Shown here one piece after another: positions 7,695-45,699 of a DNA stretch of 45,699 bases; position 1 is the stretch's first letter; every line of letters starts with the position of its first letter. Position numbers and translations under genes: made by a program. The stretch is from a virus: positions 1 through 45,699 of the IMG/VR virus record IMGVR_UViG_3300031949_000070; one strand, 5' to 3'. Below the pieces are notes generated by a model. The model was not told the origin of the DNA and did no database searches. It saw only the letters and a list, made by a program, of their open reading frames with translations.

Positions 7695-7864
7695 ATTCAG
7701 AAAAAGTTTTAAATTCGATAACCATCGCACGTGAATTTTTGGCCCAAGCGGATATTGTGATGGCCAATAGCAATGAATATTTTGGCAATAAGCATACCGC
7801 CCGGCTCCGCCGGTTATCAATGGAGCTAACACGGGCATTGGCAGAGTTGAGGAGGCCATTATGA
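7691..7864 (+). CDS. Hypothetical small protein (57 aa)
   Basis: Below the ORF-track cut-off. Its ATG overlaps the previous stop and its own stop overlaps the next ATG. Confidence 0.45.
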   Translation: MNSEKVLNSITIAREFLAQADIVMANSNEYFGNKHTARLRRLSMELTRALAELRRPL

Positions 7865-7975
7865 TTATGCACGCATTATCTGTCAAACAATCCTTTGCGT
7901 CACTGATTGCCCGTGGGCGCAAGACGAAAGAAACTCGTACTTGGAAGACGAAGTACCGGGGCGACCTGCTGATTT

Positions 7976-8018
7976 GCGCTTGTTTCAGTTCCCTCTTTAT
8001 AGGGAAGATAGCTGCAAT
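7976..8018 (+). repeat. CRISPR-repeat-like unit, copy A (GCGCTT + GTTTCAGTTCCCTCTTTATAGGGAAGATAGCTGCAAT)
   Basis: 42/43 identical to 40464-40506. Internal hairpin TTCCCT-CTTTAT-AGGGAA. The termini GTTTCAG...CTGCAAT are partially inverted. Confidence 0.85.
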
Positions 8019-8037
8019 GCCCGCAAGGGCAAAGGAG
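8019..8037 (+). promoter_or_regulatory. Hairpin-SD junction element (GCCCGCAAGGGC + AAAGGAG), copy 1 of 7
   Basis: 4-bp GC stem with a GCAA loop, directly abutting the RBS, 5 nt before ATG 8043. Confidence 0.7.
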
Positions 8038-8042
8038 AAAAA

Positions 8043-9170
8043 ATGAATATCCATGATGCGGCCAGGAACGGCCACACTGAAGCTGTAGCGTTGCTCCTGG
8101 CAAAGGGGGCAAAGGTTGAAGCTGCGGACAACAACGGCAATACCCCGCTGATAGTGGCGGCCAGGGAAGGCCACACTGAAACCGTAGCATTGCTCCTGGA
8201 AAAGGGAGCAAATATTGAAGCTGCGGATAAATACGGGAATACTCCGCTGATATTAGCGGCCTGGGAAGGCCACACTGAAGCCGTGGCGTTACTCTTGGCA
8301 AAGGGAGCAAATATTGAGGCTGCGGATAATGACGGGGATACTCCGCTGATATGGGCGGCCAGGGAAGGCCGCACTGAAGCCGTGGCATTGCTCCTGGCAA
8401 ATGGGGCAAAGGTTGAAGCTGCAAATAACTGCGGGGATACCCCGCTGATATTAGCGGCCGGGCATGGCCACACGGAAACCGTGGAGTTACTGAAAAAACA
8501 TATTGCCAATCTCATAAACTGCCGTCCAATGACCATAGCCGAGGAGCTGCAAATGCCAGAATTTGCCACCGATAAAATAAAATGTAAGCCATTCACGGCC
8601 ATTATTTCGGCTGGCTTACATTTAATAGCAATAGACCCGGCTTATGCCAAGCCGGTAGCTACAGCTCAATTTAAGCGCCCGCAGCGGGGCGATGGCATGA
8701 CTGGCAATGATATTATATTAGAGCGGGTAGATTATATCAGCCTTGAGGCTCTGTTGCGCTCACCGGGGACGGTAATCACTCTTGAGAACCACGCCAGGCG
8801 AATTCTTGTTATTGAGCGCCAATATTTGGGCAAGAATGCAAAAGTCTTTGGCGAACTTTGCTACTGGACTGGCAGGGTGGTGCAGAAGATAGCGGACATG
8901 GGTTTTGAAGTGGTGGAGGCCCCGGTATATCCGGCCAAGGGCAAGGGCTGCACCTCTTGGCTACAGGACGTGTTTGGCATACAGGGGAATTTGCCAAACA
9001 GCTCCACGATACAAGAAATGGCGCTCAGGATAGCACGGGAAGATAATCCGTATTATCTTTGGGATGAAGAAACTCAGGCGGCATCAAAAGAGTTTAAATT
9101 TAATTTTAATTATGATACTGCCATGGCTTATTGTATGGGGATGTGGTGGATTAAGAAGAATAAATTTTAA
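8043..9170 (+). CDS. Ankyrin-repeat protein running in frame into a RuvC-like resolvase (fusion ORF)
   Basis: ATG 8043 follows the hairpin-SD element. About five 33-aa ANK units (G.TPL..AA..GHTE.V.LLL.KGA..EA.D). There is no stop before the resolvase part. Confidence 0.7.
   Translation: MNIHDAARNGHTEAVALLLAKGAKVEAADNNGNTPLIVAAREGHTETVALLLEKGANIEAADKYGNTPLILAAWEGHTEAVALLLAKGANIEAADNDGDTPLIWAAREGRTEAVALLLANGAKVEAANNCGDTPLILAAGHGHTETVELLKKHIANLINCRPMTIAEELQMPEFATDKIKCKPFTAIISAGLHLIAIDPAYAKPVATAQFKRPQRGDGMTGNDIILERVDYISLEALLRSPGTVITLENHARRILVIERQYLGKNAKVFGELCYWTGRVVQKIADMGFEVVEAPVYPAKGKGCTSWLQDVFGIQGNLPNSSTIQEMALRIAREDNPYYLWDEETQAASKEFKFNFNYDTAMAYCMGMWWIKKNKF
8070..8500 (+). repeat. Tandem 99-bp (33-codon) ankyrin units, ~4.5 copies with high DNA identity
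   Basis: GGCCACACTGAAGC-type unit starts recur at 8070, 8169, 8268, 8367 and 8466, an exact 99-nt period. Confidence 0.85.
8553..9170 (+). CDS. RuvC-like Holliday-junction resolvase (possible independent internal start)
   Basis: GAGGAG RBS at 8541-8546 then ATG 8553. HLIAIDPAYAKP (catalytic Asp), LVIERQYLGKN (Glu) and a C-terminal NYDTAMAYCMG (DAxAxA-like). Confidence 0.55.
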   Translation: MPEFATDKIKCKPFTAIISAGLHLIAIDPAYAKPVATAQFKRPQRGDGMTGNDIILERVDYISLEALLRSPGTVITLENHARRILVIERQYLGKNAKVFGELCYWTGRVVQKIADMGFEVVEAPVYPAKGKGCTSWLQDVFGIQGNLPNSSTIQEMALRIAREDNPYYLWDEETQAASKEFKFNFNYDTAMAYCMGMWWIKKNKF

Positions 9171-9272
9171 GTCTGAAGATCGTGGGGCTTAAGCCTGGGT
9201 GTTAGAAGATATCAGGCCGGTTAAGCCATTTATGGCTAAGGGGAAAATGGGAATTTTTAAGGTGGACATACC

Positions 9273-9845
9273 ATGCCAGAACTTACCACTGATAAAATAA
9301 AGTGCGAGCCATTTAGAGCTACAATTTCGTCTGAACGCTGCTGGTGGAACCGGCAATCCGGTAAATATGGAGACACGTGCCGAAATTGCAAACGGGCGAA
9401 TATGCCAAAACCGGAAATGGTGAAATGTGTCCCAACATCAAAAAAGACACCACTAATATTTATATCAAAACCAAAACCTGAATCAAAAAAAGAGGAAAAA
9501 CTGATTATGCCAGAAAATCAACATGTAAAAAAATGTCGGACATGTGGCTATAAAATAGCAATAAAAGATGACCAATGCTCGGCTTGCTACCGGAAGGAAA
9601 AAGGCGTTACGATTACAAGCGTTCGTAGTAAGGCTAAAGAAGAGTCTATTAAAAAAATCTTGCCTAACGGAGAAATGGTGGGGTTGCTTTTTATAGATGA
9701 AGAGAAATCCATGTTGGATACTTTGCGCCAGAATGCCAAAGTAAATTATCGTACCCTGGAAGGGGAAATAATGTACCGATTGAAAATGTCAGTTTGCGAT
9801 GAACTCCCAAAAGAAAACAGTCGTAAATTTGAGGTAGAACCGTAA
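9273..9845 (+). CDS. Zinc-ribbon-containing hypothetical protein
   Basis: 190-aa ORF with Cys pairs (KC..., CRNC, CRTCGY...CSAC). Its N-terminal 19 aa are duplicated at 8553. Confidence 0.55.
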   Translation: MPELTTDKIKCEPFRATISSERCWWNRQSGKYGDTCRNCKRANMPKPEMVKCVPTSKKTPLIFISKPKPESKKEEKLIMPENQHVKKCRTCGYKIAIKDDQCSACYRKEKGVTITSVRSKAKEESIKKILPNGEMVGLLFIDEEKSMLDTLRQNAKVNYRTLEGEIMYRLKMSVCDELPKENSRKFEVEP

Positions 9846-27402: not shown

Positions 27403-28392
27403 CTATTTAGATACCATACAGATTTCACAAACCGATCCAGACAGAGCAGATTGCCCCTGTTCTATAGTTTTTATATGCGCTTTACGCAAATTCTGGAATT
27501 TATCCGAATTCCACTGCTGCATAAAGTTTTCACCATCCAATTTGCCCATATCAAACTTATCATCTGCCCCAAAACAACAGGCGGACAATCCACCATCTAC
27601 CCGGACATGCCCCTCCGTAAATATTGACCAACATGGCAATCCTGGACGGATAGGTTTGCCAGTTTCATCATCTATCCTGCCCATATTGCCGATTGTTGGA
27701 GTATACCCCATTGCTGACTTTATTTTATCGGCATACATGCCCATTTGGTATAACGGAAGCCAATAATGTTTATCTACATATGGACTGATTTCCTCTTCAA
27801 TAAATTTCAGAAACTTTTCCTTTTCAGAATTATCATAAAGGATAGAACTTGCCGACAACAAGGTTTTATATCCGCCAAGTTCCTTTAATCTATGGGCAAT
27901 TCTGAGAGTTTTTATGACATTATGGTATAACTCCTGGCTCCGTCCGGTAACTTCACTGAACCGTTCAGGTGAATTGAAGTTGATAGACCACTTCAAAGAA
28001 TCCAGACCACCTTCCATCAACTCTTTCAGGAGATTTGAAGTTACCAACGTAGCATTCGAGGTAAGGAATACCCAGTTAAATTCCAGTTGTTTGCACCACT
28101 TAAGCGCATTTACCAGTAAACCAGGTACGAGCGTTGATTCTCCAAGATAGAATAATCCGACTTCCTCAACTCCTGATCGTTTCATGTCTTCGGTAATCTT
28201 TTTGAAGAAATCTAAATCCATATCCTGATTTCCAGTAATTACCCGGTTTCTGGTAACGCAATATTTACACCGAAGGTTACATCTTGAAGTCAACTCAATC
28301 TTAACACTCTTTGGTGGGGGTTGGAATCCACCTGCAAGTATCCTTTTCTGCCCTATCTTCGTTACAGCATCAATCTTTTGGGTAATATCCAT
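27403..28392 (-). CDS. Radical SAM enzyme with a C-terminal SPASM/twitch-like Cys cluster
   Basis: CNLRCKYC (CxxxCxxC) near the N-terminus. A GESTL motif occupies the GGEP position. C-terminal Cys residues are CWSIF...GGLSACCFG...SVCEIC. Confidence 0.8.
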   Translation of the reverse strand: MDITQKIDAVTKIGQKRILAGGFQPPPKSVKIELTSRCNLRCKYCVTRNRVITGNQDMDLDFFKKITEDMKRSGVEEVGLFYLGESTLVPGLLVNALKWCKQLEFNWVFLTSNATLVTSNLLKELMEGGLDSLKWSINFNSPERFSEVTGRSQELYHNVIKTLRIAHRLKELGGYKTLLSASSILYDNSEKEKFLKFIEEEISPYVDKHYWLPLYQMGMYADKIKSAMGYTPTIGNMGRIDDETGKPIRPGLPCWSIFTEGHVRVDGGLSACCFGADDKFDMGKLDGENFMQQWNSDKFQNLRKAHIKTIEQGQSALSGSVCEICMVSK

Positions 28393-29828
28393 TACGACCG
28401 CCCCCTATTGGCTATAATAATTAACCTGTTATCATTTTGTCCGATTTCGCAAATTTGAAATCGTTTTTTAATCTGCGGTATCCAAACATCATCAGCCGGA
28501 TATAAAGATATGTGGGCATTTCGGCCATCAGGTAACATTTTTTTTGCAGGTGTAAGACAAATGCTGAGATATATTACCTTTTTGGTTAGTCTTTGCAATT
28601 CATCCAGGACGTTTTCCAGGCATTCCGGTTCTACATGTTCCAGAACGTCCGTGCAAATTACCAAATCAGCCGGTTGAGGTAAATTTATATTATCAATTGC
28701 AGGGTCATATCCAAACATCCTGACCCCTGTAATTTTAGGCCAGGCAGCAGCCAATCTTCGTTTACCACAACCATAATCCAAAACTGTCAGCGAATTATTA
28801 TTACTTTTGGCAATCTGCCCGGCTAGAAATGCAGTATCCTTAACATAAAATTGTCCACTTACCCCAAATTCCTGTTGATTTTCATGATATTTCCTCAAAA
28901 GTTCCCGATATTCAGGAGTAATCAAAAGATTGGTTTTTCTGACAGACCTACATTCATCTTCTTTTTCCAATTTAGCAGTCAGACTATCGCCAAAAATAGT
29001 GAATTTTATATGTGCCAGACGGTATTTCCACTTTATATATTGTCGGGCCTGGGAAGCGAACACCGGAGTAGTCAGGTAAATTGACCCATCCTCAGTTTTG
29101 GATTCCATGATATCTTCATGCCTATCTTTATCATAAGAATAATAAATCGGCTTACCATCTTCTTTAGAAAAATTAAAAAAGCAACTATCGAATCCATAAA
29201 ATTCAACCTTGCGGTATCCCAGAACATCTGCCAGTGTCATGGCCCTAAGCCCAGCCATTGAACCCCCGCAAAGTGGGGTTATCTCTTCTGTGGGCATCAA
29301 CATGTTTACCAAATGATAATCCAGTTGCTTCTCACCTATATTGCAGAATGAAAACAACCGGGTTACATTGTGTTCTTTCAGCGAATGGAACACCTTTGGG
29401 GTACATTGGGCTGCGATAAGATATTTCACATCTTTATGTGGGGTTTTTACATCATTAACCTTAGATTCCTTTGGGTCAATCATAAAAAAATAATCGGGGA
29501 CTATAGATTCCGATATAAGCCAATCATGAGTTTTATTGCTACAAAAAATATCGTAATTATTCTTATCATTTTTTTTCCTTCTTATGTCTTCGATAAAATC
29601 TTTGGCAGTAGTACCACCACAAACCATAACCATAGTTCGGTCATGTGGCTGGTCTACCTTTAAATTTGGTAAGTCCAACATGCAGTTCTGCGCTACATGC
29701 CGAAGATAAGTTAGGTCATCAACCGGACATTGTCCCCCTTCTGGGGGTGGCATCCAACCATCCGCATCTTTAAGATGCTCGAAGGTTTTAAAGTTGCCTG
29801 ATATTGGTTTTGCTGTATTTGGATTCAT
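28392..29828 (-). CDS. DUF115 (Maf/MptE-like) domain fused to a class I SAM-dependent methyltransferase
   Basis: N-terminal half is MVMVCGGTTAKDF...IFCSNKTHDWLISESIVPDYFFMIDP. C-terminal half is VLDYGCGKRRLA...GYDP...ADLVICTDVLEHVEPE. ATG 29828 is preferred over TTG 29852. Its stop overlaps the radical-SAM start (TAATG). Confidence 0.65.
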   Translation of the reverse strand: MNPNTAKPISGNFKTFEHLKDADGWMPPPEGGQCPVDDLTYLRHVAQNCMLDLPNLKVDQPHDRTMVMVCGGTTAKDFIEDIRRKKNDKNNYDIFCSNKTHDWLISESIVPDYFFMIDPKESKVNDVKTPHKDVKYLIAAQCTPKVFHSLKEHNVTRLFSFCNIGEKQLDYHLVNMLMPTEEITPLCGGSMAGLRAMTLADVLGYRKVEFYGFDSCFFNFSKEDGKPIYYSYDKDRHEDIMESKTEDGSIYLTTPVFASQARQYIKWKYRLAHIKFTIFGDSLTAKLEKEDECRSVRKTNLLITPEYRELLRKYHENQQEFGVSGQFYVKDTAFLAGQIAKSNNNSLTVLDYGCGKRRLAAAWPKITGVRMFGYDPAIDNINLPQPADLVICTDVLEHVEPECLENVLDELQRLTKKVIYLSICLTPAKKMLPDGRNAHISLYPADDVWIPQIKKRFQICEIGQNDNRLIIIANRGRS

Positions 29829-29880
29829 AATCTCCCATAAGGGAGGGGACAATTTGTCCCCTCCCCATATCCCAACCCCT

Positions 29881-34552: not shown

Positions 34553-34732
34553 TTAAGGTTTTCTCCTAACTGTTTTTTTCGTATCCTCAGTTTCTATTAT
34601 CCGCATCCCATCAATACGTCCCCTGTTTGGGTTATTTATGAAACAACTCTCATGTGCTTTACGATTATATTCATCTAACCAATCCTTTGGTTCCCCTGTC
34701 ATATTTTCTAGATAATAACAATATTTTTCCAT
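34553..34732 (-). CDS. Small hypothetical protein (59 aa)
   Basis: ATG overlaps the TerL stop (TAATG). Sequence begins MEKYCYYLENMTGEPKDWLDEYNRKAHE... Confidence 0.45.
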   Translation of the reverse strand: MEKYCYYLENMTGEPKDWLDEYNRKAHESCFINNPNRGRIDGMRIIETEDTKKTVRRKP

Positions 34733-37131
34733 TAATAATTCGATTCTGCCATTGGCACAGATTGCACTGGCGGCAACCAACCTACATTACGTTGATTTAC
34801 ATACCTAAAACAAGCATGATTATCCCACTTACCTTCAAGTATTTTATCCTTCATGCCCAATTTTTCTTCATTCACGAAAGAATCCCGCTCCATATTTTTG
34901 AAGGCATTCATAATCAATCTATTCTCAGGTATATCAAATATTCTCAATTTTGGCAATTTAAAAATGGGGTCTACCTTCAATAATTGCTTAATTTTATCAA
35001 TTCCAGCCGAAATTGAACCGAAAAATTTCTCCGAAGTCATTAATCCTGGTATAGCATTATTACCCCGCTTCAACTCTTTATAAATATTAATATCACCCAA
35101 AATTCGCAGGTTACTATTTGTTGAGGTATCACATACAGACCATCCAAGCCGATAATTTCTCTCTTGCGCTCGTTGAGCCAGCGCAAATTTTAATTCCTCA
35201 GTATCCACGGCTTGCTGATAACATCCAGTGATAAACTGAAGCCCTTCCCTATTTACAGCAACCTCAGTACACGCAGACGCCTTGGTTAAATGTGGGTCTA
35301 CCCCTCGATACACGATAAAACTATCATCCAGGTCAAACGGCTGAATCAAATGCAGCTTCTCGTTAAACAGATTACCATAAACCAAACCAGACAACGAGAC
35401 GAAGGCTCCCATAAGCCTCATCTTTATCGTAGGATAATCCAGTCCGGTTAAAATCTCCCTCAATGTTTCCAGTTTCGCATACCGATTACATATTGACGGC
35501 ATTTTAAAGCAGGATATCCGCACCCCGTCTTCTTTATCTAAAATATCCTCTTTTATCCATGTTAACCCCTCTGTAGGGGTCATACTAAATAAAATTTTTA
35601 ACCGGTCAGCCGTTATAAACCGGGCCTTGGTTTCCTCGTATTTATCCTTGTCCGGCTGCTCATCGAAAATAGCCCACTGTAACGGATTCCCCTGAAACCC
35701 TCTTGTATCCTGCTCATTGGTTTTAAATTGGACGGTACTTATTGGCCGCCGATCACCTGAATACAATGTAAGCGTTTTATACTCCGCTGACCAACTCTTT
35801 GACCAGTCCCCATCCAATAAAAATTTCTTAGGCAGCCACCTTTCCCATGCCTTCAGAATTATCATGTTCAGGGAAGTATTATCTACTCCCGTCACACGCC
35901 CATAAACCGGCCAAGAGGTAGGTAATTTACTTTTAGGATATATTCCCTCCAAACTTAACGGCAACTCTCCTGTAGACCATATAATGCCCTCTACAGTGGC
36001 AAGCGTTGTATTGTGATGAACCAAACCTCCGGCAAAATAATTATGATATTTTTCAACCTCAAAGTCATAAACTTCTTGTTGACAGGGAATCAAGTCGCAT
36101 GATACAATCTGATTACCTTCTACATATAAAGGAAATAAATTTGAATAACCTTCATGGTCTAAAAATTGATTCTGATCGTCTTCGTTATCTGATAGAGATT
36201 CAGAAGATGACTCAGAAACAGGCTGCAAAAGCTCTTGATGTTTATATTTCGACTGTTGAAAAGTGGTGTAAAAAACTTCACCTGTCAACTCAACGTCCTG
36301 GGCCTCGTCGTGGAGAACAACACCCGGATTGGAAGGGTGGATACAAACTGACAAAGGGTTATCAGTATGTTTATTGTCCTGAACATCCGAATTGCACGAA
36401 GTCCCGGTACGTTGCTGAACACCGGCTTGTAATGGAACAAAAAATTGGCCGTTTTTTAGAAAAACACGAGACTGTTCATCATATTGATGGAAATCGCCTG
36501 AACAACCATCCAAGTAATCTAATGGTTTTTCAGAACAATGCTGCTCATTTAAAACATGAGCTGACTGGGAAATGTCCAAACTGGACTCCTGAAGGCAAGG
36601 CAAGAACCCTTTTAGGCGCTCAACGGTGGCGTAATTACCGTCATTCATTAAAACACGGTGCAAATCAGCAGCCTCTACCCAGCGACCATCTGACATCGTT
36701 ATCCGATAACACCAATGAATTCCAGGTTTCTTAAATGGAGCGGAAGCATTTGCTATTACTTTTTTCCCCCCATCCCAGGCATATACCTTAAACGGTTTAC
36801 CTTCTTTAAAAAGCAAACCAATCGTTTTCGCACCATCAACTGTATCTATAACTGTTTGATAAGTAAGACATTTTCCACCCTGATTGCCCCCTCCCGCCAA
36901 TATTATAGGCACATCACTTAAATGCACATCCCGCTGACTATCCAATCTGCCCTGTGGCACATCCTCTGGCAGCAACCACTCTTCCAAAAATCGCTTATGT
37001 TCATCATCCACCACCCCATCCGATGGCAAATAATCCCAGAACGGCTCCTCTACATTCACCGAGGCCACAACCTTCTGCAACTCTGCCAACTTAACCATCA
37101 AATCAGACGTGGAAACATTGCTTAAATCCAT
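34732..37131 (-). CDS. terL: Terminase large subunit, interrupted in frame by an intein
   Basis: Walker A GGNQGGK|T is split between K87 and T375. Walker-B-like LQWAIFDEQP lies downstream. Removing residues 88-374 leaves a 512-aa TerL. Confidence 0.85.
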   Translation of the reverse strand: MDLSNVSTSDLMVKLAELQKVVASVNVEEPFWDYLPSDGVVDDEHKRFLEEWLLPEDVPQGRLDSQRDVHLSDVPIILAGGGNQGGKCLTYQTVIDTVDGAKTIGLLFKEGKPFKVYAWDGGKKVIANASAPFKKPGIHWCYRITMSDGRWVEAADLHRVLMNDGNYATVERLKGFLPCLQESSLDISQSAHVLNEQHCSEKPLDYLDGCSGDFHQYDEQSRVFLKNGQFFVPLQAGVQQRTGTSCNSDVQDNKHTDNPLSVCIHPSNPGVVLHDEAQDVELTGEVFYTTFQQSKYKHQELLQPVSESSSESLSDNEDDQNQFLDHEGYSNLFPLYVEGNQIVSCDLIPCQQEVYDFEVEKYHNYFAGGLVHHNTTLATVEGIIWSTGELPLSLEGIYPKSKLPTSWPVYGRVTGVDNTSLNMIILKAWERWLPKKFLLDGDWSKSWSAEYKTLTLYSGDRRPISTVQFKTNEQDTRGFQGNPLQWAIFDEQPDKDKYEETKARFITADRLKILFSMTPTEGLTWIKEDILDKEDGVRISCFKMPSICNRYAKLETLREILTGLDYPTIKMRLMGAFVSLSGLVYGNLFNEKLHLIQPFDLDDSFIVYRGVDPHLTKASACTEVAVNREGLQFITGCYQQAVDTEELKFALAQRAQERNYRLGWSVCDTSTNSNLRILGDINIYKELKRGNNAIPGLMTSEKFFGSISAGIDKIKQLLKVDPIFKLPKLRIFDIPENRLIMNAFKNMERDSFVNEEKLGMKDKILEGKWDNHACFRYVNQRNVGWLPPVQSVPMAESNY
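36079..36108 (+). promoter_or_regulatory. Sigma70-like promoter TTGACA-N18-TACAAT, antisense to terL and upstream of the HNH gene body
   Basis: Hexamers at 36079-84 and 36103-08. They lie inside the coding sequence of the intein C-terminal splicing domain. Confidence 0.5.
36099..36734 (+). CDS. HTH + HNH homing endonuclease encoded antisense within the intein
   Basis: HTH is MTQKQAAKALDVYISTVEKWCKKL. HNH part is GYQYVYCPEHPN...YVAEHRLVMEQKIGRFLEKHETVHHIDGNRLNNHPSNLMVFQNNAAHLKH. The start is uncertain: ATG 36099, TTG 36141 (AAGGAA RBS, downstream of the promoter) or ATG 36207. Confidence 0.8.
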   Translation: MIQSDYLLHIKEINLNNLHGLKIDSDRLRYLIEIQKMTQKQAAKALDVYISTVEKWCKKLHLSTQRPGPRRGEQHPDWKGGYKLTKGYQYVYCPEHPNCTKSRYVAEHRLVMEQKIGRFLEKHETVHHIDGNRLNNHPSNLMVFQNNAAHLKHELTGKCPNWTPEGKARTLLGAQRWRNYRHSLKHGANQQPLPSDHLTSLSDNTNEFQVS

Positions 37132-37727: not shown

Positions 37728-38291
37728 TCACTCATCTGTATCACGCATATCAAGTGGCTTAGTAATATCTGTCATGTTGATATCATGTGCTACTGCTATG
37801 CTCTGCCTGCGCTTAAGCTCACTCGTAATCTCTGATATCGCCTGCTGCGCTTGTGATACCACGCTGCGAGTGCTGATATTCTCCGTACTCCGGCCTTGCG
37901 CTAATAATCTGGCATGGTTAACCTGGCTAAATGCATACGCAGTATTGTTTAGCGAGGCATTTGCCCTTTTGGCAGGGTCAAGCAGGTCAAGGGCAAGCTC
38001 CGATTCTACAGTTGCAAGAAATGTAGCTTCCCTTACTTGGTAGGCTTTAGCTTGACTTGCTATAGATATTCTGTTCAGGTATGGCTGAAGTGCCTCTTGT
38101 ACGGCCTGTTTAGAGACACCATACATTTTGGCAATAGAGGGGTAGGTCAAGCCGTTGACACAGCGTAATCGCAATATTTCGCCGAGCGGTAATTTGCCAC
38201 ATTTGCGGTGGATAGATAGTGATTTTTGGGCTTGCTTGGGGGTTTGCTGGTCTATGTCCAGAGTAGTATCTATGTCCAGAGTAGTATCCAT
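37728..38291 (-). CDS. HTH DNA-binding protein (regulator or small-terminase candidate), apparently leaderless
   Basis: HTH is LTYPSIAKMYGVSKQAVQEAL. N-terminal MDTTLDIDTTLDID arises from an 18-bp tandem duplication. The ATG lies 6 nt after a consensus -10. Confidence 0.6.
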   Translation of the reverse strand: MDTTLDIDTTLDIDQQTPKQAQKSLSIHRKCGKLPLGEILRLRCVNGLTYPSIAKMYGVSKQAVQEALQPYLNRISIASQAKAYQVREATFLATVESELALDLLDPAKRANASLNNTAYAFSQVNHARLLAQGRSTENISTRSVVSQAQQAISEITSELKRRQSIAVAHDINMTDITKPLDMRDTDE

Positions 38292-38297
38292 GACAAT

Positions 38298-38327: not shown

Positions 38328-38739
38328 GGCTGATTAAGTACATGATATTATGTGGATTATCATAAGATATAAGGACTTGCGTATACAGTAGTATATGCGG
38401 GGAACGCTGGTCAATCACGGCTGCCAGCTTACATGGCTTGCCGCTTGCGGAGCGGCAAAAGCGCCATAAAGGTATCGCCTGCCTTGCGGCGGCGATGACA
38501 ATAGTAGTAGTATCATACCCTGGGATGGCTTGTCAAGATACAAGGGGTAGTGGCTTGCATATAGCATTGCTATATGTAGGCGCATGGTTATACTACTCAA
38601 TATATCGGCTTGGTTTTGTTATCCGTGCACCCGCTATCATATCATTAGCCTGCAATAATAATGCGCCTACGGGCTTGCAGTAGAGCCGTTATATCCATAC
38701 TGCATAAGCGTTTCCAGTCACGTAATTATATTAAGATAT

Positions 38740-38769
38740 TTGCATTATTATTGCATTATTTGCATTATT
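38740..38769 (+). repeat. Three tandem TTGCATTATT words directly upstream of the -35
   Basis: Copies at 38740-49, 38751-60 and 38760-69. Confidence 0.85.
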
Positions 38770-38773
38770 TTAC

Positions 38774-38802
38774 TTGACATTGATTAATTTAATTGGTATA
38801 CT
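38774..38802 (+). promoter_or_regulatory. Strong sigma70-like promoter TTGACA-N17-TATACT for the accessory arm
   Basis: Hexamers at 38774-79 and 38797-802. First gene ATG is at 38830. Confidence 0.6.
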
Positions 38803-39390: not shown

Positions 39391-39409
39391 GCCCGAAAGG
39401 GCAAAGGAG
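39391..39409 (+). promoter_or_regulatory. Hairpin-SD junction element (GCCCGAAAGGGC + AAAGGAG), copy 2
   Basis: Followed 5 nt later by GTG 39415. Confidence 0.7.
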
Positions 39410-39414
39410 AAAAC

Positions 39415-39735
39415 GTGAGTATCAAGATTGTAGTAGAGAAAGTTTTAACAGTTGAAAAAGAGAAGGGTTTAAAAATTGTCAGCATATCAGGAGTGCTGGC
39501 ACAAGAAGAACTCCCGAAGGAGTTTAAGAAGGGGAAGTTTGCTTACAGAATGGGGAAAAGTGGGATTTACTTCCCCCATCTTCCGAATATGGTTATTGGG
39601 GAGACGGAAACAAAAGAAAGCTTAGAAACTCAACTTGAGTTTCTAAGGGAGTCCGGGCAGAAGCTACATGAAATTAATAAGAAGTTGGCAATAGAGAATG
39701 CCAACTGGAGAGGAGGTGAGACATATATTGTCTAG
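39415..39735 (+). CDS. Hypothetical protein (106 aa)
   Basis: GTG start positioned after the hairpin-SD element. Confidence 0.5.
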   Translation: MSIKIVVEKVLTVEKEKGLKIVSISGVLAQEELPKEFKKGKFAYRMGKSGIYFPHLPNMVIGETETKESLETQLEFLRESGQKLHEINKKLAIENANWRGGETYIV

Positions 39736-39741
39736 GCCGAA

Positions 39742-39774
39742 ACCGCCTTCGGGCGGTCTGCCCGTTTTGCGGGC
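39742..39774 (+). terminator. Two consecutive GC stem-loops after the gene (ACCGCC-TTCG-GGCGGT and GCCCG-TTTTG-CGGGC)
   Basis: Read directly from the sequence. No U-tract follows, so they may act in processing or stability rather than as intrinsic terminators. Confidence 0.4.
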
Positions 39775-39794
39775 ACTGATGAGGCAAATTTAAC

Positions 39795-39806
39795 GCCCGC
39801 AAGGGC
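39795..39806 (+). promoter_or_regulatory. Hairpin GCCCGCAAGGGC, copy 3 (orphan: no SD or gene follows)
   Basis: Preceded by the conserved TTTAAC and followed by AAATTTGGGC instead of AAAGGAG. Confidence 0.6.
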
Positions 39807-39908
39807 AAATTTGGGCATAGTTGTCAGATGGGATTTACTGGAATTTGTGATGGTCATTGTATATACTTTTCTAATAAAAATTGTGAGCATGTGCAATTTC
39901 ATATTGCT

Positions 39909-39933
39909 CATCTATTTCATGCTGAAATAGATG
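39909..39933. repeat. Perfect 11-bp inverted repeat CATCTATTTCA-TGC-TGAAATAGATG
   Basis: Read directly. Lies in the 300-nt non-coding stretch upstream of gene 40036. Confidence 0.85.
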
Positions 39934-39993
39934 AAGGTGGAAAAGCACAAATCACCTTTTTAGAAGATTGACAAACGGTTCCGTCTCCTTCCC

Positions 39994-40023
39994 CGTAACC
40001 GTAACCGTAACCGTAACCATAAC
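39994..40023 (+). repeat. Hexanucleotide microsatellite (CGTAAC)x4 + CATAAC, abutting the RBS of gene 40036
   Basis: Sequence is ccCGTAACCGTAACCGTAACCGTAACCATAACtgagaggag. Confidence 0.9.
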
Positions 40024-40035
40024 TGAGAGGAGATT

Positions 40036-40446
40036 ATGAAATACATAACAGCAACAGAACCACCCAAATTTACCAATATGCAAATGGCCATGGCAAAGCG
40101 CCTGGGACTAAATCTTTCAGATTTAGATCCAAATGATAAAAGATTAAGAATAGACTATCCTCCTCTGGGATATTATAGCTTTTCCAAAGCTATAAGGGAA
40201 ATTGCAGGAAAGCACCAGGACATTGTATCCAGGGGGGGAGGTAGGAATTTTTATTACATCTCTTTAAGTAAGAGCTGTAATAAGTTAATTACTATGATAA
40301 GAGGGCTTCAGCAAGAAGCTCCTCAAAGAGAGGGTGCAAAAGAGCTTCGTCTGATGTGGGGAAAGGAACTCCACAAAATCTGGACGGACGAACTCAAATA
40401 CACAGCTGGATATTGGCACTTGGGGTGGGTAGAGCTTGAGAGATAA
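40036..40446 (+). CDS. Hypothetical protein, paralogue A1 (136 aa)
   Basis: Shares GYYSFSKAI.EI.GK.QDIVSRGGGRNFYYISLS.SC.KLI..IR.LQ.E.PQRE.AKELR.MWGKEL...W..EL.Y.A.YWHLGWVEL with 41796..42239. Confidence 0.65.
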   Translation: MKYITATEPPKFTNMQMAMAKRLGLNLSDLDPNDKRLRIDYPPLGYYSFSKAIREIAGKHQDIVSRGGGRNFYYISLSKSCNKLITMIRGLQQEAPQREGAKELRLMWGKELHKIWTDELKYTAGYWHLGWVELER

Positions 40447-40463
40447 ACTCTCAAGCTGATGAG

Positions 40464-40506
40464 GCGCTTGTTTCAGTTCCCTCTTTATAGGGAAGATATC
40501 TGCAAT
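40464..40506 (+). repeat. CRISPR-repeat-like unit, copy B
   Basis: GCGCTTGTTTCAGTTCCCTCTTTATAGGGAAGATATCTGCAAT, one mismatch against 7976-8018. Confidence 0.85.
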
Positions 40507-40677
40507 AGCGGATGGGGTGCGAGGAGTCTGGCCCGGTTGATGGGCTGCGGAAGTGGCACACCCGTCATGAAGGAATTGAAAGGCAAAGCAGAGATGTAGT
40601 ATATCTGCTCAACAATATAGAAGACGACGGGGGGAAATAACAAAACTCGCCTGGTGCAGCGAGCATAAACAAAGCCC

Positions 40678-40702
40678 AGTCCCTACGAAGAGGGAACTTA
40701 AC
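40678..40702 (-). repeat. Inverted, degenerate copy of the 5' part of the CRISPR-repeat-like unit
   Basis: The minus strand reads GTTAAGTTCCCTCTTCGTAGGGACT against GTTTCAGTTCCCTCTTTATAGGGAAG. It keeps the same TCCCT/AGGGA hairpin. Confidence 0.6.
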
Positions 40703-40767
40703 CAAATACAGTATATGTAATTTTAAAAGATAAACAAAAACTGAATTTGAGGAAACAGTATAAAAAG

Positions 40768-41241
40768 ATGTTTACTATAGATTTTTTAACTCCGTTAAAT
40801 TTAAGCCCAAAACTTTCGAGAACAACAGCCTGGAGAGTAAAAAAAGGTATTTCTCCAGGCGTTGGCCAGGATTATATAAATCCCTGGCCTGAGAAACTAA
40901 AAATAAATAGCTGTAGAACTAAAAATAAAGAAAGAAAACCACTAAAAAATATTACTCCTTTTAAAACTACAATTAATATAAACGAATTACAAAAAATAGC
41001 AGCATATGCTACAAAAACAGTAGCTGTTAAACTAAAAATATATGAATATCAAATGTTCTATGAATACCGCAAAGATTGTATTCAGGAATGCTTGACTTTA
41101 ATATTTGAATTGTCTAACAAGCACAAAAACAACAAACATATTGCAATGAAGATTGCAATAAATGCGGCATTTAAGTTTTGGTGCAGTGTTTGTAAATGGT
41201 TTGTGCATAACGAACAGGGGGCAGGAGATGAGTGTAATTAA
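40768..41241 (+). CDS. Hypothetical protein in an AT-rich insert
   Basis: ATG 40768 (MFTIDFLTPL...). Lys/Asn-rich. No family recognised. Confidence 0.5.
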   Translation: MFTIDFLTPLNLSPKLSRTTAWRVKKGISPGVGQDYINPWPEKLKINSCRTKNKERKPLKNITPFKTTININELQKIAAYATKTVAVKLKIYEYQMFYEYRKDCIQECLTLIFELSNKHKNNKHIAMKIAINAAFKFWCSVCKWFVHNEQGAGDECN

Positions 41242-41602
41242 GCATGTAAAATTATTTGCTTCGTTCATTCCAAGCGAAGCACTTTGCAAACAGATTTTGG
41301 CTTTTGTAAAATGGAAGAAGGGGGGGAGGACTAACCGTCTTTTTTATTTTCAAAAGCCCGGCACGATAATAAAGCTATATGCACCAGAAAAATTGCAGGC
41401 AGGAACTCATTGTACGGTGTCTATAGTTGAAAAAACAATTTCAAAAATTCAGGGAACCAAAACAAAAATTGTGATTGTTCCTAACAGTTTTAAGTTTGAT
41501 GAGGGTCGTTTATTTCCACAGGCAGAGATTGCCAAAGAAATATATAAATCAATAGGAGCCTGTCATGAAAGCAGAGAAAGAATAAATAATACCTTGAGTT
41601 AA
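41228..41602 (+). CDS. Hypothetical protein in an AT-rich insert
   Basis: ATG 41228 (MSVIKHVKLF...) overlaps the previous gene's end. Confidence 0.5.
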   Translation: MSVIKHVKLFASFIPSEALCKQILAFVKWKKGGRTNRLFYFQKPGTIIKLYAPEKLQAGTHCTVSIVEKTISKIQGTKTKIVIVPNSFKFDEGRLFPQAEIAKEIYKSIGACHESRERINNTLS

Positions 41603-41795
41603 AAAATATACCGGCGGGCAAGGCTGGTTGTTCTTGCCCTGTTAGCGGCGGTTGTATTGGCTGTGGTGATATATCAATTGTGTGGGCTGCGGCGGAGTGG
41701 CGGTCGGCGGCGCAGGGCTAGGGTCATCACCGAAAAGCGGATAACCTCGCCGCCTGCCCTGCTCAATCTTGAGTTAGCCAGAGGAGGCTATTATT

Positions 41796-42239
41796 ATGAA
41801 ATACGTACCAGCAGCAGAACCTTCAAGTCTTACCAGAGCTCAAACTTGGCAAGCGAAGCGCCAGGGACTAAAACTGTCAGCCAGGGCGGTGGCCGCCTGG
41901 GAAAGACTAGAAAGAGGGGAGACGATCGGATATTATAGCTTTTCCAAAGCTATAAAAGAAATCGAAGGGAAGCCCCAGGACATTGTGTCCAGGGGAGGGG
42001 GAAGAAACTTTTACTATATATCACTAAGCCGTAGCTGTAAAAAATTGATTTCAATTATAAGGGAACTTCAGCTGGAAGTTCCCCAAAGAGAAAATGCGAA
42101 AGAACTTCGCATAATGTGGGGCAAGGAACTCCAAAAATACTGGAGAAAGGAGCTGATGTATAAGGCCAGGTACTGGCACCTGGGGTGGGTAGAGTTACCT
42201 GCCGAAGGAAAAAACAGAAGTGAAGGCTGCAATAAATAA
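41796..42239 (+). CDS. Hypothetical protein, paralogue A2 (147 aa)
   Basis: Paralogue of 40036..40446 with a GAGGAGG RBS. Confidence 0.65.
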   Translation: MKYVPAAEPSSLTRAQTWQAKRQGLKLSARAVAAWERLERGETIGYYSFSKAIKEIEGKPQDIVSRGGGRNFYYISLSRSCKKLISIIRELQLEVPQRENAKELRIMWGKELQKYWRKELMYKARYWHLGWVELPAEGKNRSEGCNK

Positions 42240-42402
42240 ATAAATAAATTGATCAAAATTATAAGAGAGCTTCACAGCGAGCCTAAACAAAGCTCACCGG
42301 GGACGGGGTGCGAGGAGTCTGGTTTCGTTTTCGGCTCCGGTTCCGGGGATGGGGTGCGGATATTTTAATTTATTTGCGTTATGGTGATTGCAACAACTTA
42401 AC

Positions 42403-42421
42403 GCCCGCAAGGGCAAAGGAG
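42403..42421 (+). promoter_or_regulatory. Hairpin-SD junction element (AACTTAAC + GCCCGCAAGGGC + AAAGGAG), copy 4
   Basis: Followed by ATG 42428. Confidence 0.7.
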
Positions 42422-42427
42422 AAAAGC

Positions 42428-42643
42428 ATGTGGTACGCAGAACGTTTGATAAATGATGGAAGAGCAGATTTGACAGATAAAAAAGGGAAGGTCGATCAGC
42501 GAAAAGCTAATTTAATCCGAATCTTGGGCAATGCTCAGTTACATTTAGTCAAACCTTATCCAAGTGCTTGGGGATATTTTGATAATTATGTTAAAGCGTT
42601 AAGGTCTATACAACTGAACGAGTTCCCATCTGAGCGTGATTAA
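42428..42643 (+). CDS. Hypothetical small protein (71 aa)
   Basis: ATG positioned after the hairpin-SD element. The longer ORF-track form (42308) would read through repeat debris. Confidence 0.55.
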   Translation: MWYAERLINDGRADLTDKKGKVDQRKANLIRILGNAQLHLVKPYPSAWGYFDNYVKALRSIQLNEFPSERD

Positions 42644-42651
42644 ACCCAAAG

Positions 42652-42732
42652 TTGGCGGCCAGGGGAGGCCGCACTGAAGTTGTGACATTGCTGAAAAACC
42701 ATATTGCCAAAACCGGCAAGCAAATAACTTAA
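42652..42732 (+). pseudogene. Orphan 3' relic of an ankyrin-repeat gene
   Basis: Reads LAARGGRTEVVTLLKNHIAKTGKQIT then a stop. Nearly identical at the DNA level to the GCGGCCAGGGAAGGCCGCACTGAAGCCGTGGCATTGCT units of the intact gene at 8043. Confidence 0.75.
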
Positions 42733-42733
42733 C

Positions 42734-42745
42734 GCCCGTAAGGGC
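42734..42745 (+). promoter_or_regulatory. Hairpin GCCCGTAAGGGC, copy 5 (degenerate SD; GAGG further downstream)
   Basis: Preceded by ATAACTTAAC. ATG 42765 follows. Confidence 0.6.
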
Positions 42746-42764
42746 AAGAAATGAGGTCATTCGC

Positions 42765-42968
42765 ATGGGGAAAAACAAAAAAGGAAGGCCATCCGGGGTT
42801 GTTGAACCGGGGCGACAGGTGTCCGGCTGGATACCAGCCGATGACTATGAAATTTTAATGGCGATAACGAAGACCGAAGGGCGGTCTCTATCAAACCTGC
42901 TGGCAAAGATGGTGAGGGATAAGATTGCCAGCTACAAAAATGGGCGGGCGATGGATGAAAGGGGATAA
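42765..42968 (+). CDS. Ribbon-helix-helix (CopG/Arc-like) protein
   Basis: RQVSGWIPADDYEILMAITKTEGRSLSNLLAKMVRDKI fits a beta-strand plus two-helix RHH pattern. Confidence 0.6.
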   Translation: MGKNKKGRPSGVVEPGRQVSGWIPADDYEILMAITKTEGRSLSNLLAKMVRDKIASYKNGRAMDERG

Positions 42969-42970
42969 AA

Positions 42971-43120
42971 ATGTACGATGATTATGATGATTATTACGCT
43001 AGTGTAGACGCCAATGAACGTAAGGTTGAACGCCGCTGGCGGTGGGCACTGGCGATACTCATTACGGCAATTGTTACCGCAATTGTCTGGCAATTGTTTT
43101 TTATCTATGGGGGAAAATAA
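42971..43120 (+). CDS. Small single-TM protein (49 aa)
   Basis: Not in the ORF track. Sequence is MYDDYDDYYASVDANERKVERRWRWALAILITAIVTAIVWQLFFIYGGK. Its stop overlaps the next ATG. Confidence 0.5.
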   Translation: MYDDYDDYYASVDANERKVERRWRWALAILITAIVTAIVWQLFFIYGGK

Positions 43121-43452
43121 TGGAAATCGGGGACGTATTGTGGAAGTTGCGAAAGCGGTCGGGGCTGGCGCAAAGGAATATTGAAAAATCTTGCGGGCTG
43201 AAACGAGCACATCTGTCCAAGATAGAAACTAACGGACTTAAAAACCCGACTATCAAGACTGTGAGAAAAATTGTGGGGGCGCTTGGGCTGAAAATGTCGG
43301 ATGTGTTTCTGTTCTTGGAGCAAAACAAAATCTCGGAAGCCGTAGCCGAAAAGTTCCAGCGGCCCCCGGTTAACACGGAGACGCTCAGGGAAACAGAGAA
43401 GGCCATTGTATCCTTAGAGGCCACGCATAACGCTGGCAAATGTGTACGATAA
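43120..43452 (+). CDS. XRE-family HTH regulator (110 aa)
   Basis: Start taken at MEIGDVLWKLRKRSGLAQRNIEKSCGLKRAHLSKIETNGLKNPTIKTVRKI, a typical HTH_3 pattern. Confidence 0.7.
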   Translation: MEIGDVLWKLRKRSGLAQRNIEKSCGLKRAHLSKIETNGLKNPTIKTVRKIVGALGLKMSDVFLFLEQNKISEAVAEKFQRPPVNTETLRETEKAIVSLEATHNAGKCVR

Positions 43453-43459
43453 GCTGACA

Positions 43460-43534
43460 ATGGCGGCCAAGTATGGCCGCACTAAAGTCGTGGCATTGCT
43501 GAAAAACCATAATATTGCCAAAACTGGCAAATAA
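43460..43534 (+). pseudogene. Second orphan 3' relic of an ankyrin-repeat gene
   Basis: Reads MAAKYGRTKVVALLKNHNIAKTGK then a stop. It has the same tail and the same downstream ATAACTTAAC-hairpin junction as the relic at 42652. Confidence 0.7.
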
Positions 43535-43540
43535 CTTAAC

Positions 43541-43560
43541 GCCCGAAAGGGCAAAGGAGG
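43541..43560 (+). promoter_or_regulatory. Hairpin-SD junction element (GCCCGAAAGGGC + AAAGGAGG), copy 6
   Basis: Followed by ATG 43565. Confidence 0.7.
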
Positions 43561-43564
43561 AAAC

Positions 43565-43855
43565 ATGACGCTACTGGACAAACTCCGGGGCGATAAAAAG
43601 TTGGCGGTAGAAGGTGGCAAAACTGAAACGTTCTTTGCCCCGCCTCAGTTGAGAGCAGATAAGCGGGTCATGGCGGTTGGCAGGATTGACCCCCGCACTA
43701 AGCGAATTACCTTGTATGAGATATGCAGGCAGGAACCGCCCGTGGACATGGAAGAGTACGCACGGCGATTATTGGGGCAACCGTTGCCGGATAAAAAAGC
43801 CGGTAACGTCATCGGTACAGAGAATCAAAGTGCAAGGTTCCATACCAAACCATAA
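43565..43855 (+). CDS. Hypothetical protein (96 aa)
   Basis: ATG positioned after the hairpin-SD element. Confidence 0.55.
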   Translation: MTLLDKLRGDKKLAVEGGKTETFFAPPQLRADKRVMAVGRIDPRTKRITLYEICRQEPPVDMEEYARRLLGQPLPDKKAGNVIGTENQSARFHTKP

Positions 43856-43997
43856 ATGAGGCGACCCATCCAGAAAAAGCATTTGGCCTGACTTCTCAGA
43901 GCGCTTCCGCCGCTGATTGTGGCTAGGGAGCGCTCCCGAACGGCGGCCACCTCACCGCCTGCCACAAGGGGATAATCAAAATGAAAAGGAATAAAAA

Positions 43998-44695: not shown

Positions 44696-45699
44696 ATGAG
44701 CGAAAAACAAGAAATTTTTGACGGGGAAATGCTGCCAGCAACGAGAGCAGATGAGGCTCAAGTTCCGGTCGCTACTGAGATGTACGTTGGGGCATTATCC
44801 CGGTTCAAACTGCACAAAAAGATGGTTCAAGAGGTTATTAATTACACCGAGGCGCACGACTGGTTTAATTACGGCAAGGTTGTCCGGTTGTCAGCCCCCC
44901 GGTCAGAGTCTATATATCGGATTTTGGGATTACAGGCATTCAACCTGAAGCGGGAGCGGCAAGAACTCCCCAACGGGTATTATCAGTATATGGTCACCGC
45001 AGATGTAGGATTCAGCGCAGGGCAGACCCTTAATGTCGTAGGTTTCTGCCGGGCGTCAAAGCCCTTGTTTGCAACGAAAAATAAAGAGTCCGTACCTGCT
45101 GATGATATTGACGAGGGAAATGTTATTAAAAATGCGGACTCAGATTTCATAGTAAACGCAGTTGGGCGATTCGCCGGAATTCGGGGACTTACTCCAGAAG
45201 ATATTGAACGCCTGTCAATCGGAAAAATAAAGGCGGCCAATATGCAGAAAGTAGACTTCGGGGGCCGGGCGGTAGAGCGCAGCGAAGAGGAAAGCGGCCA
45301 GGCCGAATCAACCTGGCAGCAGCTCCTTGAGATGAACGGTCAATCTGTGGAAAAGGCCAAGTCGCAGCTACAGAAACTCACCGCCTTTACGGGCAAGGAC
45401 GGCAAGCAGTTTACTGGGTATACCGACATTAAAAAGGTCAGCGCCGGGGTGCTTAAAAACCTGGTGGGCAAGGTGGCGAACCTACATAAAACCTGGCTAA
45501 AGGAATCCTGTGGCGGTAATCAGCAGCAAGGGGAAGCCCCGGAGATTACCCTTGAATCAGTATCCGCCGAAATGGGCAACCTTGACCTAGCGGGGCTGGC
45601 TGCCTACTGGAATGCAAAGAGCAAAAACCTCCAGGAGGTGTTCGGGGCGGATTTTCCCCTGATTGAGGCCGAAAAGAATCGCATCAAGGCCAACTTGCA
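44696..45699 (+). CDS. Recombination-module protein, possible single-strand annealing protein; 3' end lies across the circular junction
   Basis: ATG at 44696. It is absent from the ORF track because no stop is reached before the window ends. The frame is open to 45699 and continues through the repeat to TAA 150-152 (342 aa in total). Its stop overlaps the exonuclease start (ATGGCTAA). Function is inferred only from its position directly upstream of a PD-(D/E)XK exonuclease. Confidence 0.7.
   Translation, partial: MSEKQEIFDGEMLPATRADEAQVPVATEMYVGALSRFKLHKKMVQEVINYTEAHDWFNYGKVVRLSAPRSESIYRILGLQAFNLKRERQELPNGYYQYMVTADVGFSAGQTLNVVGFCRASKPLFATKNKESVPADDIDEGNVIKNADSDFIVNAVGRFAGIRGLTPEDIERLSIGKIKAANMQKVDFGGRAVERSEEESGQAESTWQQLLEMNGQSVEKAKSQLQKLTAFTGKDGKQFTGYTDIKKVSAGVLKNLVGKVANLHKTWLKESCGGNQQQGEAPEITLESVSAEMGNLDLAGLAAYWNAKSKNLQEVFGADFPLIEAEKNRIKANL
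45573..45699. repeat. 127-bp terminal direct repeat (right copy)
   Basis: Identical to 1-127 by direct comparison. Confidence 0.95.

Follow-up and report, generated by a model that had tools for sequence, protein, structure and literature searches.

The element reported here resembles in function, as far as analogy allows, two kinds of described system: insulators of the RiboJ type, in which the synthetic sTRSV hammerhead ribozyme is followed by a hairpin and a ribosome-binding site (RBS), and natural 5' stem-loop stabilisers of mRNA, such as those of ompA, the aprE leader and the T7 gene 10 leader. Its genomic behaviour is more akin to that of the promoter early stem-loops (PeSLs) of T4-type phages, which combine a sigma70 early promoter with a terminator stem-loop and act on transcription (PMC2839356, PMC4122927). 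Hammerhead ribozymes that flank single genes are also known from prophages, where they have been proposed to process polycistronic RNA (PMC3088659). Here we analyzed positions 1 to 45,699 of the IMG/VR virus record IMGVR_UViG_3300031949_000070 (45,699 nt; this whole stretch is referred to as the window), in which a small hairpin, GCCCGNAAGGGC, is present in six exact copies, all on the + strand, and is in most cases fused to a Shine-Dalgarno (SD) sequence (Table 1). We read the element as an RNA-level expression cassette, located in a 5' untranslated region (5' UTR) or between cistrons, and assign this reading a probability of about 0.5.

The number of copies is far above the chance expectation for GCCCGNAAGGGC: dinucleotide-preserving shuffles contain 0.04 on average, and six was not reached in any of 100. 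Identity common to all copies extends to the 14-mer GCCCGNAAGGGCAA, for which the window contains no further site, even when up to two mismatches are allowed. Within the hairpin, variation is confined to the one free position of the loop, which reads GCAA in three copies, GAAA in two and GUAA in one, all of them GNRA tetraloops. In four of the six copies (1, 2, 4 and 6), AAAGGAG directly follows the hairpin and an ATG or GTG lies 5–6 nt further on, while in copy 5 the SD has degenerated to GAGG, further downstream, and copy 3 lacks one; upstream, AACTTAAC directly precedes copies 4, 5 and 6, and TTTAAC precedes copy 3. The first-pass annotation had described both the SD fusion and the (A)CTTAAC or TTTAAC prefix in these terms, and had called copy 3 an orphan, which agrees with our finding that the only open reading frame (ORF) behind it, of 47 aa (39828-39971) and starting 22 nt after the copy, is unsupported and has no SD. 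Pairwise identity between copies spans 23–33 nt, and copies 1 and 2 share 33 nt at 88% identity, reaching the first three codons; the argument that the element is too conserved to represent independent RBS contexts is borne out by these values. Only about seven gene-linked AAGGAG sites exist genome-wide, of which four are hairpin-linked. When folded in context, the stem has a pair probability of 1.0 in all five gene-linked copies and of just 0.53 in the orphan.

The window is a complete phage-like genome in a circular assembly, with bases 1-127 identical to 45573-45699. Structural genes lie on the - strand between 10.4 and 37.5 kb, including those for an SU10-type portal and for a large terminase that shows an intein signal. 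A + strand arm starts at a strong sigma70-like promoter (38774-38802) and continues across the window end to ~10.4 kb. All six copies lie within this one co-oriented early/accessory arm, where the element marks gene starts, as had been proposed. As no promoter-like site adjoins any copy and the nearest strong one is that at 38774-38802, the copies lie inside an operon. The hairpin is thus an autonomously folding structure that abuts the strongest SD of the genome within an operon. The genes behind it are small and mostly without a Pfam or PHROG match, the exception being the ankyrin fusion gene that starts at 8043; for two of them (39415-39735 and 43565-43855), no homologues were found among 5.8 billion protein clusters. 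Since 55–190 nt of untranslated RNA lie ahead of the cassette genes, these must initiate de novo, and we found no evidence for the translational coupling that had been suggested as one possible role.

A conserved motif of ~25 nt that lies upstream of genes on one strand and forms a GC hairpin might also act in transcription, as a promoter specific to the phage or as an intrinsic terminator. We give this explanation almost no chance, as the 4-bp stem is followed by AAAGGAG instead of a U tract, no + strand terminator is called at any copy, and, in the other contigs described below, stems vary among loci and the module lies inside the transcript, 3' of sigma70-like promoters.

Table 1. Copies of the hairpin element and associated features in the window
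Feature	Position	Strand	Description
Cassette copy 1	8019-8045	+	Hairpin GCCC-GCAA-GGGC, 8019-8030; SD AAAGGAG, 8031-8037; ATG 8043; ankyrin-fusion gene 8043-9170
Cassette copy 2	39391-39417	+	Hairpin (GAAA), 39391-39402; SD, 39403-39409; GTG 39415; ORFan gene 39415-39735
Cassette copy 3, orphan	39790-39808	+	TTAAC; hairpin (GCAA), 39795-39806; then AAATTTG in place of SD
Cassette copy 4	42395-42430	+	AACTTAAC; hairpin (GCAA), 42403-42414; SD, 42415-42421; ATG 42428; 71-aa gene 42428-42643
Cassette copy 5, decayed	42726-42767	+	AACTTAAC; hairpin (GUAA), 42734-42745; then AAGAAATGAGG; ATG 42765; 67-aa gene
Cassette copy 6	43533-43567	+	AACTTAAC; hairpin (GAAA), 43541-43552; SD AAAGGAGG, 43553-43560; ATG 43565; 96-aa ORFan gene 43565-43855
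Type II hammerhead ribozyme (predicted)	39735-39793	+	Rfam RF02276, 40.4 bits (gathering 37)
Ankyrin-gene 3' remnant A	42653-42732	+	Reads ...LAARGGRTEVVTLLKNHIAKTGKQIT*; stop is the TAA inside CTTAAC; directly 5' of copy 5
Ankyrin-gene 3' remnant B	43453-43534	+	Reads ...LTMAAKYGRTKVVALLKNHNIAKTGK*; directly 5' of copy 6; starts after the helix-turn-helix gene stop
43-nt non-coding repeat	7976-8018	+	Joined to the left of copy 1; second copy 40464-40506, 98% identity

The first-pass annotation counted seven copies; six are those described above, and the seventh, GCCCGTTTTGCGGGC at 39760, is present but forms stem I of a predicted type II hammerhead ribozyme rather than a copy of the element. 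The match to RF02276 has an E value of 6.3e-05 when the whole window is scanned and of 1.2e-05 in an 8.3-kb scan. The ribozyme, which begins at the stop codon of the gene behind copy 2, reads GGCC-GAAAC-CGCCUUCGGGCG-GUC/U-GCCCGUUUUGCGGGC-A-CUGAUGAG-GC (the slash marking the cleavage site), with stem III (CGCC UUCG GGCG) at 39744-39757, stem I (GCCCG UUUU GCGGGC) at 39759-39775 and the core CUGAUGAG at 39776-39783. It has the features of the type II class, namely the core CUGAUGA … GAAA, an A15.1-U16.1 pair, a C17 site, closed stems I and III and an open stem II, its stems being of 3, 5–6 and 7 bp, and the minimum-free-energy fold contains stems I and III. Cleavage is predicted between C39758 and T39759, on which a core-and-stem scan independent of Rfam agrees. 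In type II hammerheads, loop I and the 3' tail commonly pair in a pseudoknot of at least 4 bp (PMC3088659); read from the sequence, the pseudoknot here could comprise three A-U pairs at most (loop UUUU, tail AAA). Taken together, 39735-39793 is predicted to be an ordinary member of RF02276. A second candidate hammerhead, at CTGATGAGGC (40456), was rejected, having neither a GAAA/stem III partner nor an Rfam match at E <= 5.

The orphan copy 3 lies 37 nt past the predicted cleavage site, separated from it by the ribozyme 3' tail and TTTAAC. As with the gene-flanking hammerheads of prophages (Perreault et al. 2011, PMC3088659; RF02276, RAGATH-1-hammerhead), a canonical type II ribozyme is located between two genes of an early operon, and a related contig family, described below, carries hammerheads at successive junctions. 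Unlike in those cases, the repeated element of the window is not itself a ribozyme, and a fixed unit of linker, GNRA hairpin and SD 3' of the ribozyme is undescribed in that literature (PMC3088659). The order of ribozyme, short hairpin and exposed RBS that defines the RiboJ-type insulators is approached at 39735-39806 and at the junctions of the L028, L046, L067 and L100 contigs, and the hairpin, as in those insulators, folds autonomously. However, five of the six copies in the window have no ribozyme, the hairpin comprises only 4 bp and a GNRA loop and touches the SD, and in computed folds the accessibility of the SD does not clearly differ with and without the hairpin.

Close relatives of the window were found neither in IMG/VR (four window proteins) nor among GTDB genomes (portal) or GenBank phages (region DNA), and the nearest available relative, L005, whose portal is 60% identical, lacks the motif; because of this, the element is lineage-specific as a repeat. 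An exact 22-nt pattern gave a single match in IMG/VR, inside a coding region of a high-GC phage, which we dismissed as chance. When metagenomes were scanned with GCCCGNAAGGGCAAAGGAG, in which hairpin and SD are joined, at least 119 stretches matched; in GTDB genomes the number was 74, and almost every match was single-copy. A motif search had been proposed as a check on the element, and its outcome is divided: the repeat is absent from the nearest available relative, yet its layout, in which an A/C-rich "…AAC" linker leads into a GNRA hairpin followed by AAAGGAG and ATG, recurs in unrelated metagenomic contigs. No protein was found to be common to the matching contigs and the window.

A start codon lies 2–12 nt downstream in 109 of 162 non-redundant hairpin-plus-SD matches, and AAC(N) directly precedes the hairpin in 33 of these 109 as opposed to 0 of the 53 without a start codon, the chance expectation being ~3%. 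The 37 loci of the AAC type contain 43 other gene starts with a strong SD, and at 13 of these a GC hairpin likewise adjoins the SD, compared with 2.0 at control offsets. The stems at such neighbouring genes differ yet remain complementary (GGGGGGC/GCCCCCC, GTCCCGA/TCGGGAC, GCCCC/GGGGC, CTGGGC/GCCCGG), which, judged by the sequences, is covariation at the level of the class. In L203, L204 and L037, the module begins ~20–50 nt after a sigma70-like promoter and is therefore in the primary 5' UTR.

In one group of related short contigs (L028, L046, L067 and L100), type I hammerheads (CUGAYGAG…CGAAAY…RUY/, cleavage again at the slash) are located at every gene junction, where the order is hammerhead, (A/C)AACCCTTAAC(N), GCCCGNAAGGGC or GCCCGGAACCGGGC, (A/G)AAGGAG and ATG. 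The ribozyme stems of this family show compensatory changes, and the cleavage site lies 20–36 nt before the hairpin. These minimal hammerheads have weak Rfam scores, but are canonical type I by the core-and-stem scan. Rfam scans of 39 matching loci revealed no hairpin-adjacent ribozyme outside the L028 family. The link between ribozyme and hairpin is thus real, but limited to two lineages. A role at the RNA level, in processing, stability or translation, had been among the earlier suggestions and is the best-supported one, with hammerhead cleavage predicted 5' of one copy and the same order repeated in an unrelated contig family.

Two further observations were made in the matching contigs. In four unrelated ones (L037 560-590, L042 630-662, L102 117-148 and L200 8170-8200), a second, nested hairpin precedes the hairpin-SD unit; it has the form (G/C)CCC…GCGCAUAnCGCGC…GGG(C/G)-ACCAAC, its outer stem covaries, and it has no Rfam match. 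Upstream of it, three of the four share the block GGCATTGACCCGATTAGAGGGGATAAC. Furthermore, four of the 74 GTDB matches (L154, L174, L179 and L188) are from two metagenome-assembled genomes of Candidatus Stahlbacteria, which may hint at hosts or phages that favour the design.

On the reading that we prefer, the cassette would consist of an A/C-rich linker (…CTTAAC), an autonomous stem of four G:C pairs with a GNRA tetraloop, and an abutting SD, AAAGGAG, the strongest of the genome, 5–6 nt before the start codon, and copies of it would have come to stand ahead of a few accessory or ORFan genes in the long + strand early operon. The hairpin might serve as a bulkhead, which folds regardless of context and stops upstream RNA from pairing with the SD, and, once the transcript has been cut, as a stem-loop that shields the downstream mRNA close to its 5' end. 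Judging by the sequence evidence, the cut would be made by the type II hammerhead upstream of one copy here and by type I ribozymes in the other phage-like lineage; elsewhere, processing might be carried out by host RNases. The string AACUUAAC presumably resembles the T7 gene 10 'epsilon' enhancer, UUAACUUUA, and an RNase E site.

Several results weigh against this reading. Deletion or disruption of the hairpin in silico caused no clear change in SD accessibility, the mean unpaired probability of the SD being 0.49–0.90 in the native sequences and 0.45–0.92 with the hairpin deleted. Within the window, no compensatory stem variants were found, GCCC/GGGC being the sole stem used, so that there is no within-genome covariation. 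The ribozyme accompanies only one of the six copies, the one that has neither an SD nor a supported gene, and an Rfam ribozyme is absent from 19 other matching loci. L005 lacks any Rfam match as well as the motif. In cellular genomes, the exact motif is just 2.3–2.6-fold more frequent than controls of the same composition (74 stretches in GTDB for GCCCGNAAGGGCAAAGGAG, 32 for a flipped stem and 28 for a non-pairing stem), and the matches across contigs were ascertained by a pattern that fixes both hairpin and SD. Finally, the reading has been drawn from sequence and computed folds.

The strict conservation of stem sequence and loop class in six copies, together with a position next to the SD that would suit repression, could also mean that an RNA-binding protein uses the hairpin as its operator, be it a boxB-like site for an N-type antiterminator or the target of a translational repressor that occludes the SD, through which the tagged genes are coordinated. 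Lambda boxB, GCCCUGAAAAAGGGC, is a GC stem with a GNRA-like loop, and the lambda-type nut site shares with the element a GCCC…GGGC stem, a GNRA-type loop and a location in an early operon, although the loop here is a true tetraloop and that of the nut site a pentaloop. We nevertheless rejected membership in the nut-site class: there is no boxA-like sequence at the usual spacing, and six SD-abutting copies are found where one or two per operon, near the promoter, would be expected. Related loci have varied stems and loops, and a candidate for the RNA-binding protein was not identified, the majority of the arm's proteins being without a Pfam or PHROG match; nor was an N-like protein identified, although none was specifically searched for. 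We consider an operator distinctly unlikely.

The arm around the copies contains several footprints of recombination. The 80–90 nt upstream of copies 5 and 6 belong to a direct repeat of 98 nt with 84% identity (the remnant A region and 43461-43554), which takes in an ankyrin 3' remnant and the hairpin, and the two ankyrin-gene remnants listed in Table 1, which match the ankyrin gene behind copy 1 by BLASTP (E = 2e-05 for remnant A, to its last ankyrin repeat, and 1e-04 for remnant B), flank a module of three genes that encode a ribbon-helix-helix-like protein of 67 aa, a transmembrane protein of 49 aa and a helix-turn-helix protein. At copy 1, ORF 7861-8046 (+) opens with ~38 residues from the start of an ASCH domain, which match positions 1-37 of the 103 in the Pfam profile at 28 bits; the ORF then reads on through the 43-nt repeat, hairpin and SD, its stop codon overlapping the ankyrin ATG (ATGA). 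A likely C-terminal ASCH remnant lies at 9190-9299, to judge from a weak, non-significant PDB alignment, the Pfam scan being negative. It appears that the ankyrin cassette with its 5' module, ~1.2 kb in all, was inserted into an ASCH gene. The 43-nt repeat also has an inverted partner at 40680-40705, ending GGGAACTTAACC. The ankyrin protein itself (8043-9170) is a fusion, with five 99-nt ankyrin repeats joined at 8553 to a stretch that duplicates the 5' end of the neighbouring gene 9273-9845 (61 nt, 79% identity).

As the identical patches of 23–33 nt are the sole homology between otherwise unrelated genes, they are probably crossover points as well, seeding recombination that moves or deletes cassettes. 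The proposal that the element is a homology patch for cassette exchange, made in the first-pass annotation, accordingly stands as a suggestion, based on the 98-nt direct repeats, the split ASCH gene and the ORFans behind two copies. A stronger version, in which the element acts at the DNA level, its repeats letting ORFan cassettes insert, excise and swap while any RNA role is incidental, is in our view doubtful. The copies do border small ORFan genes in a plastic early arm, similarity is lost sharply at the module edges, the 98-nt repeat around the three-gene module is the scar expected of a single crossover with a circular donor, the insert in the ASCH gene starts with the 43-nt repeat and a cassette, and PeSLs offer a mechanistic precedent (PMC2839356). 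However, such a patch would not account for the constant distance between the start codon and the consensus SD that the hairpin adjoins, for variation that is found solely at the N position of the GNRA loop, or for the retention of the architecture, with other stems, in unrelated contigs; the core identity is also short (14–33 nt). In addition, no relative carrying alternative cassettes was found that would show breakpoints; the assembly of origin is ENA ERZ27256953, and a 3.4-kb contig in SRR9005073 is 100% identical and so holds no polymorphism information. The footprints fit recombination at or near the cassette, but do not prove that recombination is its function.

With the PeSLs, the element has in common that it is a short composite regulatory repeat in a plastic early region beside ORFans and a plausible substrate for gene-shuffling recombination: repeated copies stand before small genes of the + arm, two of which were searched and have no homologues. 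In this single genome, a direct repeat around the three-gene module and a split ASCH gene may be traces of such recombination. Unlike a PeSL, it combines a hairpin with an SD and would act on translation or mRNA. The equivalence to T4-type PeSLs that had been drawn does not hold, as the repeat contains neither a promoter nor a terminator (PMC2839356); we rejected membership because the 14–33-nt repeat includes no sigma70-type promoter and because the 4-bp stem has no U tract and no + strand terminator is called at the copies. An element of the IS200/IS605, repetitive extragenic palindromic (REP) or miniature inverted-repeat transposable element (MITE) type was likewise rejected, there being a single hairpin per gene start. 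No Pfam match to a transposase or integrase was found among the 29 genes on L002, which covers the window from 40.2 kb to its end and on to 8.3 kb.

The element might, finally, be a non-functional hitch-hiker, a piece of an ancestral 5' UTR that was spread by recent local duplications and has not yet decayed. Six exact copies without degenerate ones are consistent with a recent spread, copy 5 has lost its SD, copy 3 is without a gene, and the region is rich in other recent short repeats. Against this, the downstream genes are mutually unrelated, the stem is intact where the flanks have diverged (to 84% over the 98-nt repeat), and the architecture recurs in unrelated contigs, and we regard this explanation as very unlikely.

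Other features of the arm were noted along the way. Immediately ahead of the strong promoter at 38774 are 3.3 repeats of TTTGCATTAT (38739-38771), which look like an operator, and the divergent - strand gene 37728-38291 has an 18-nt tandem duplication (38251-38292) at its 5' end. Two int-alpA RNA motifs were detected by Rfam on the + strand (41711-41778 and 43916-43983; 39.9 and 36.0 bits, gathering 35.8), each ending immediately ahead of the SD and start codon of the gene that follows (41796 and 43998). With them, the arm has two kinds of structured element before its cistrons. The intergenic region 40440-40720 (+) has an unusually stable fold over 320 nt (-91.9 kcal/mol, z = -3.8), with a ~230-nt domain closed by the inverted repeats 40468-40493 and 40680-40705, of which the right arm ends AACTTAACC. 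Blocks of this region reappear reordered at 42275-42322, downstream of a paralogous gene. A structured RNA and a MITE-like element are both possible identities for the region. The paralogous + strand genes 40036-40446 (136 aa) and 41796-42239 (147 aa) share 267 nt at 77% identity, and neither has a family match; (CCGTAA)x5 at 39993-40023 precedes the former, and an int-alpA motif the latter.

Elsewhere in the window, Rfam called a tRNA at 2860-2927 (+; 46.2 bits, gathering 29), whereas ARAGORN found no tRNA in the whole window. The large terminase-like protein 34732-37131 (-; 799 aa) aligns to its relative in two blocks, residues 7-100 and 367-798. Residues 110-374 match Pfam Intein_splicing below threshold, and an intein is therefore probable. 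Inside the structural block, 27403-29852 (-) encodes a radical SAM/SPASM protein and an MptE-like plus methyltransferase protein, and the MptE-like gene is conserved in L005.

All in all, the element is real and non-random in its six copies and would be a fairly ordinary expression cassette. A more far-reaching possibility is that ribozyme, CTTAAC linker, GNRA hairpin and SD form a 'process-and-translate' cassette that spreads horizontally, amounting to a RiboJ of natural origin, and that plugs ORFans into the operons of unrelated phages; the cistron would be freed by the ribozyme and both protected and insulated by the hairpin, the patch would act as a recombination site, and hairpin-only copies would have lost their ribozyme. 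We think this rather unlikely. Were the expression-cassette reading wrong, the element would be merely a recently duplicated 5' UTR fragment. If it is correct, however, phage hammerheads, the function of which is still unclear, would gain a testable role in cutting mRNA 5' of a hairpin and RBS, and the 19–27-nt module could be tried as a small natural insulator part. Phages would then be reusing a compact, translation-level cassette for newly acquired ORFans, as a counterpart of the transcription-level PeSLs of T4-type phages.

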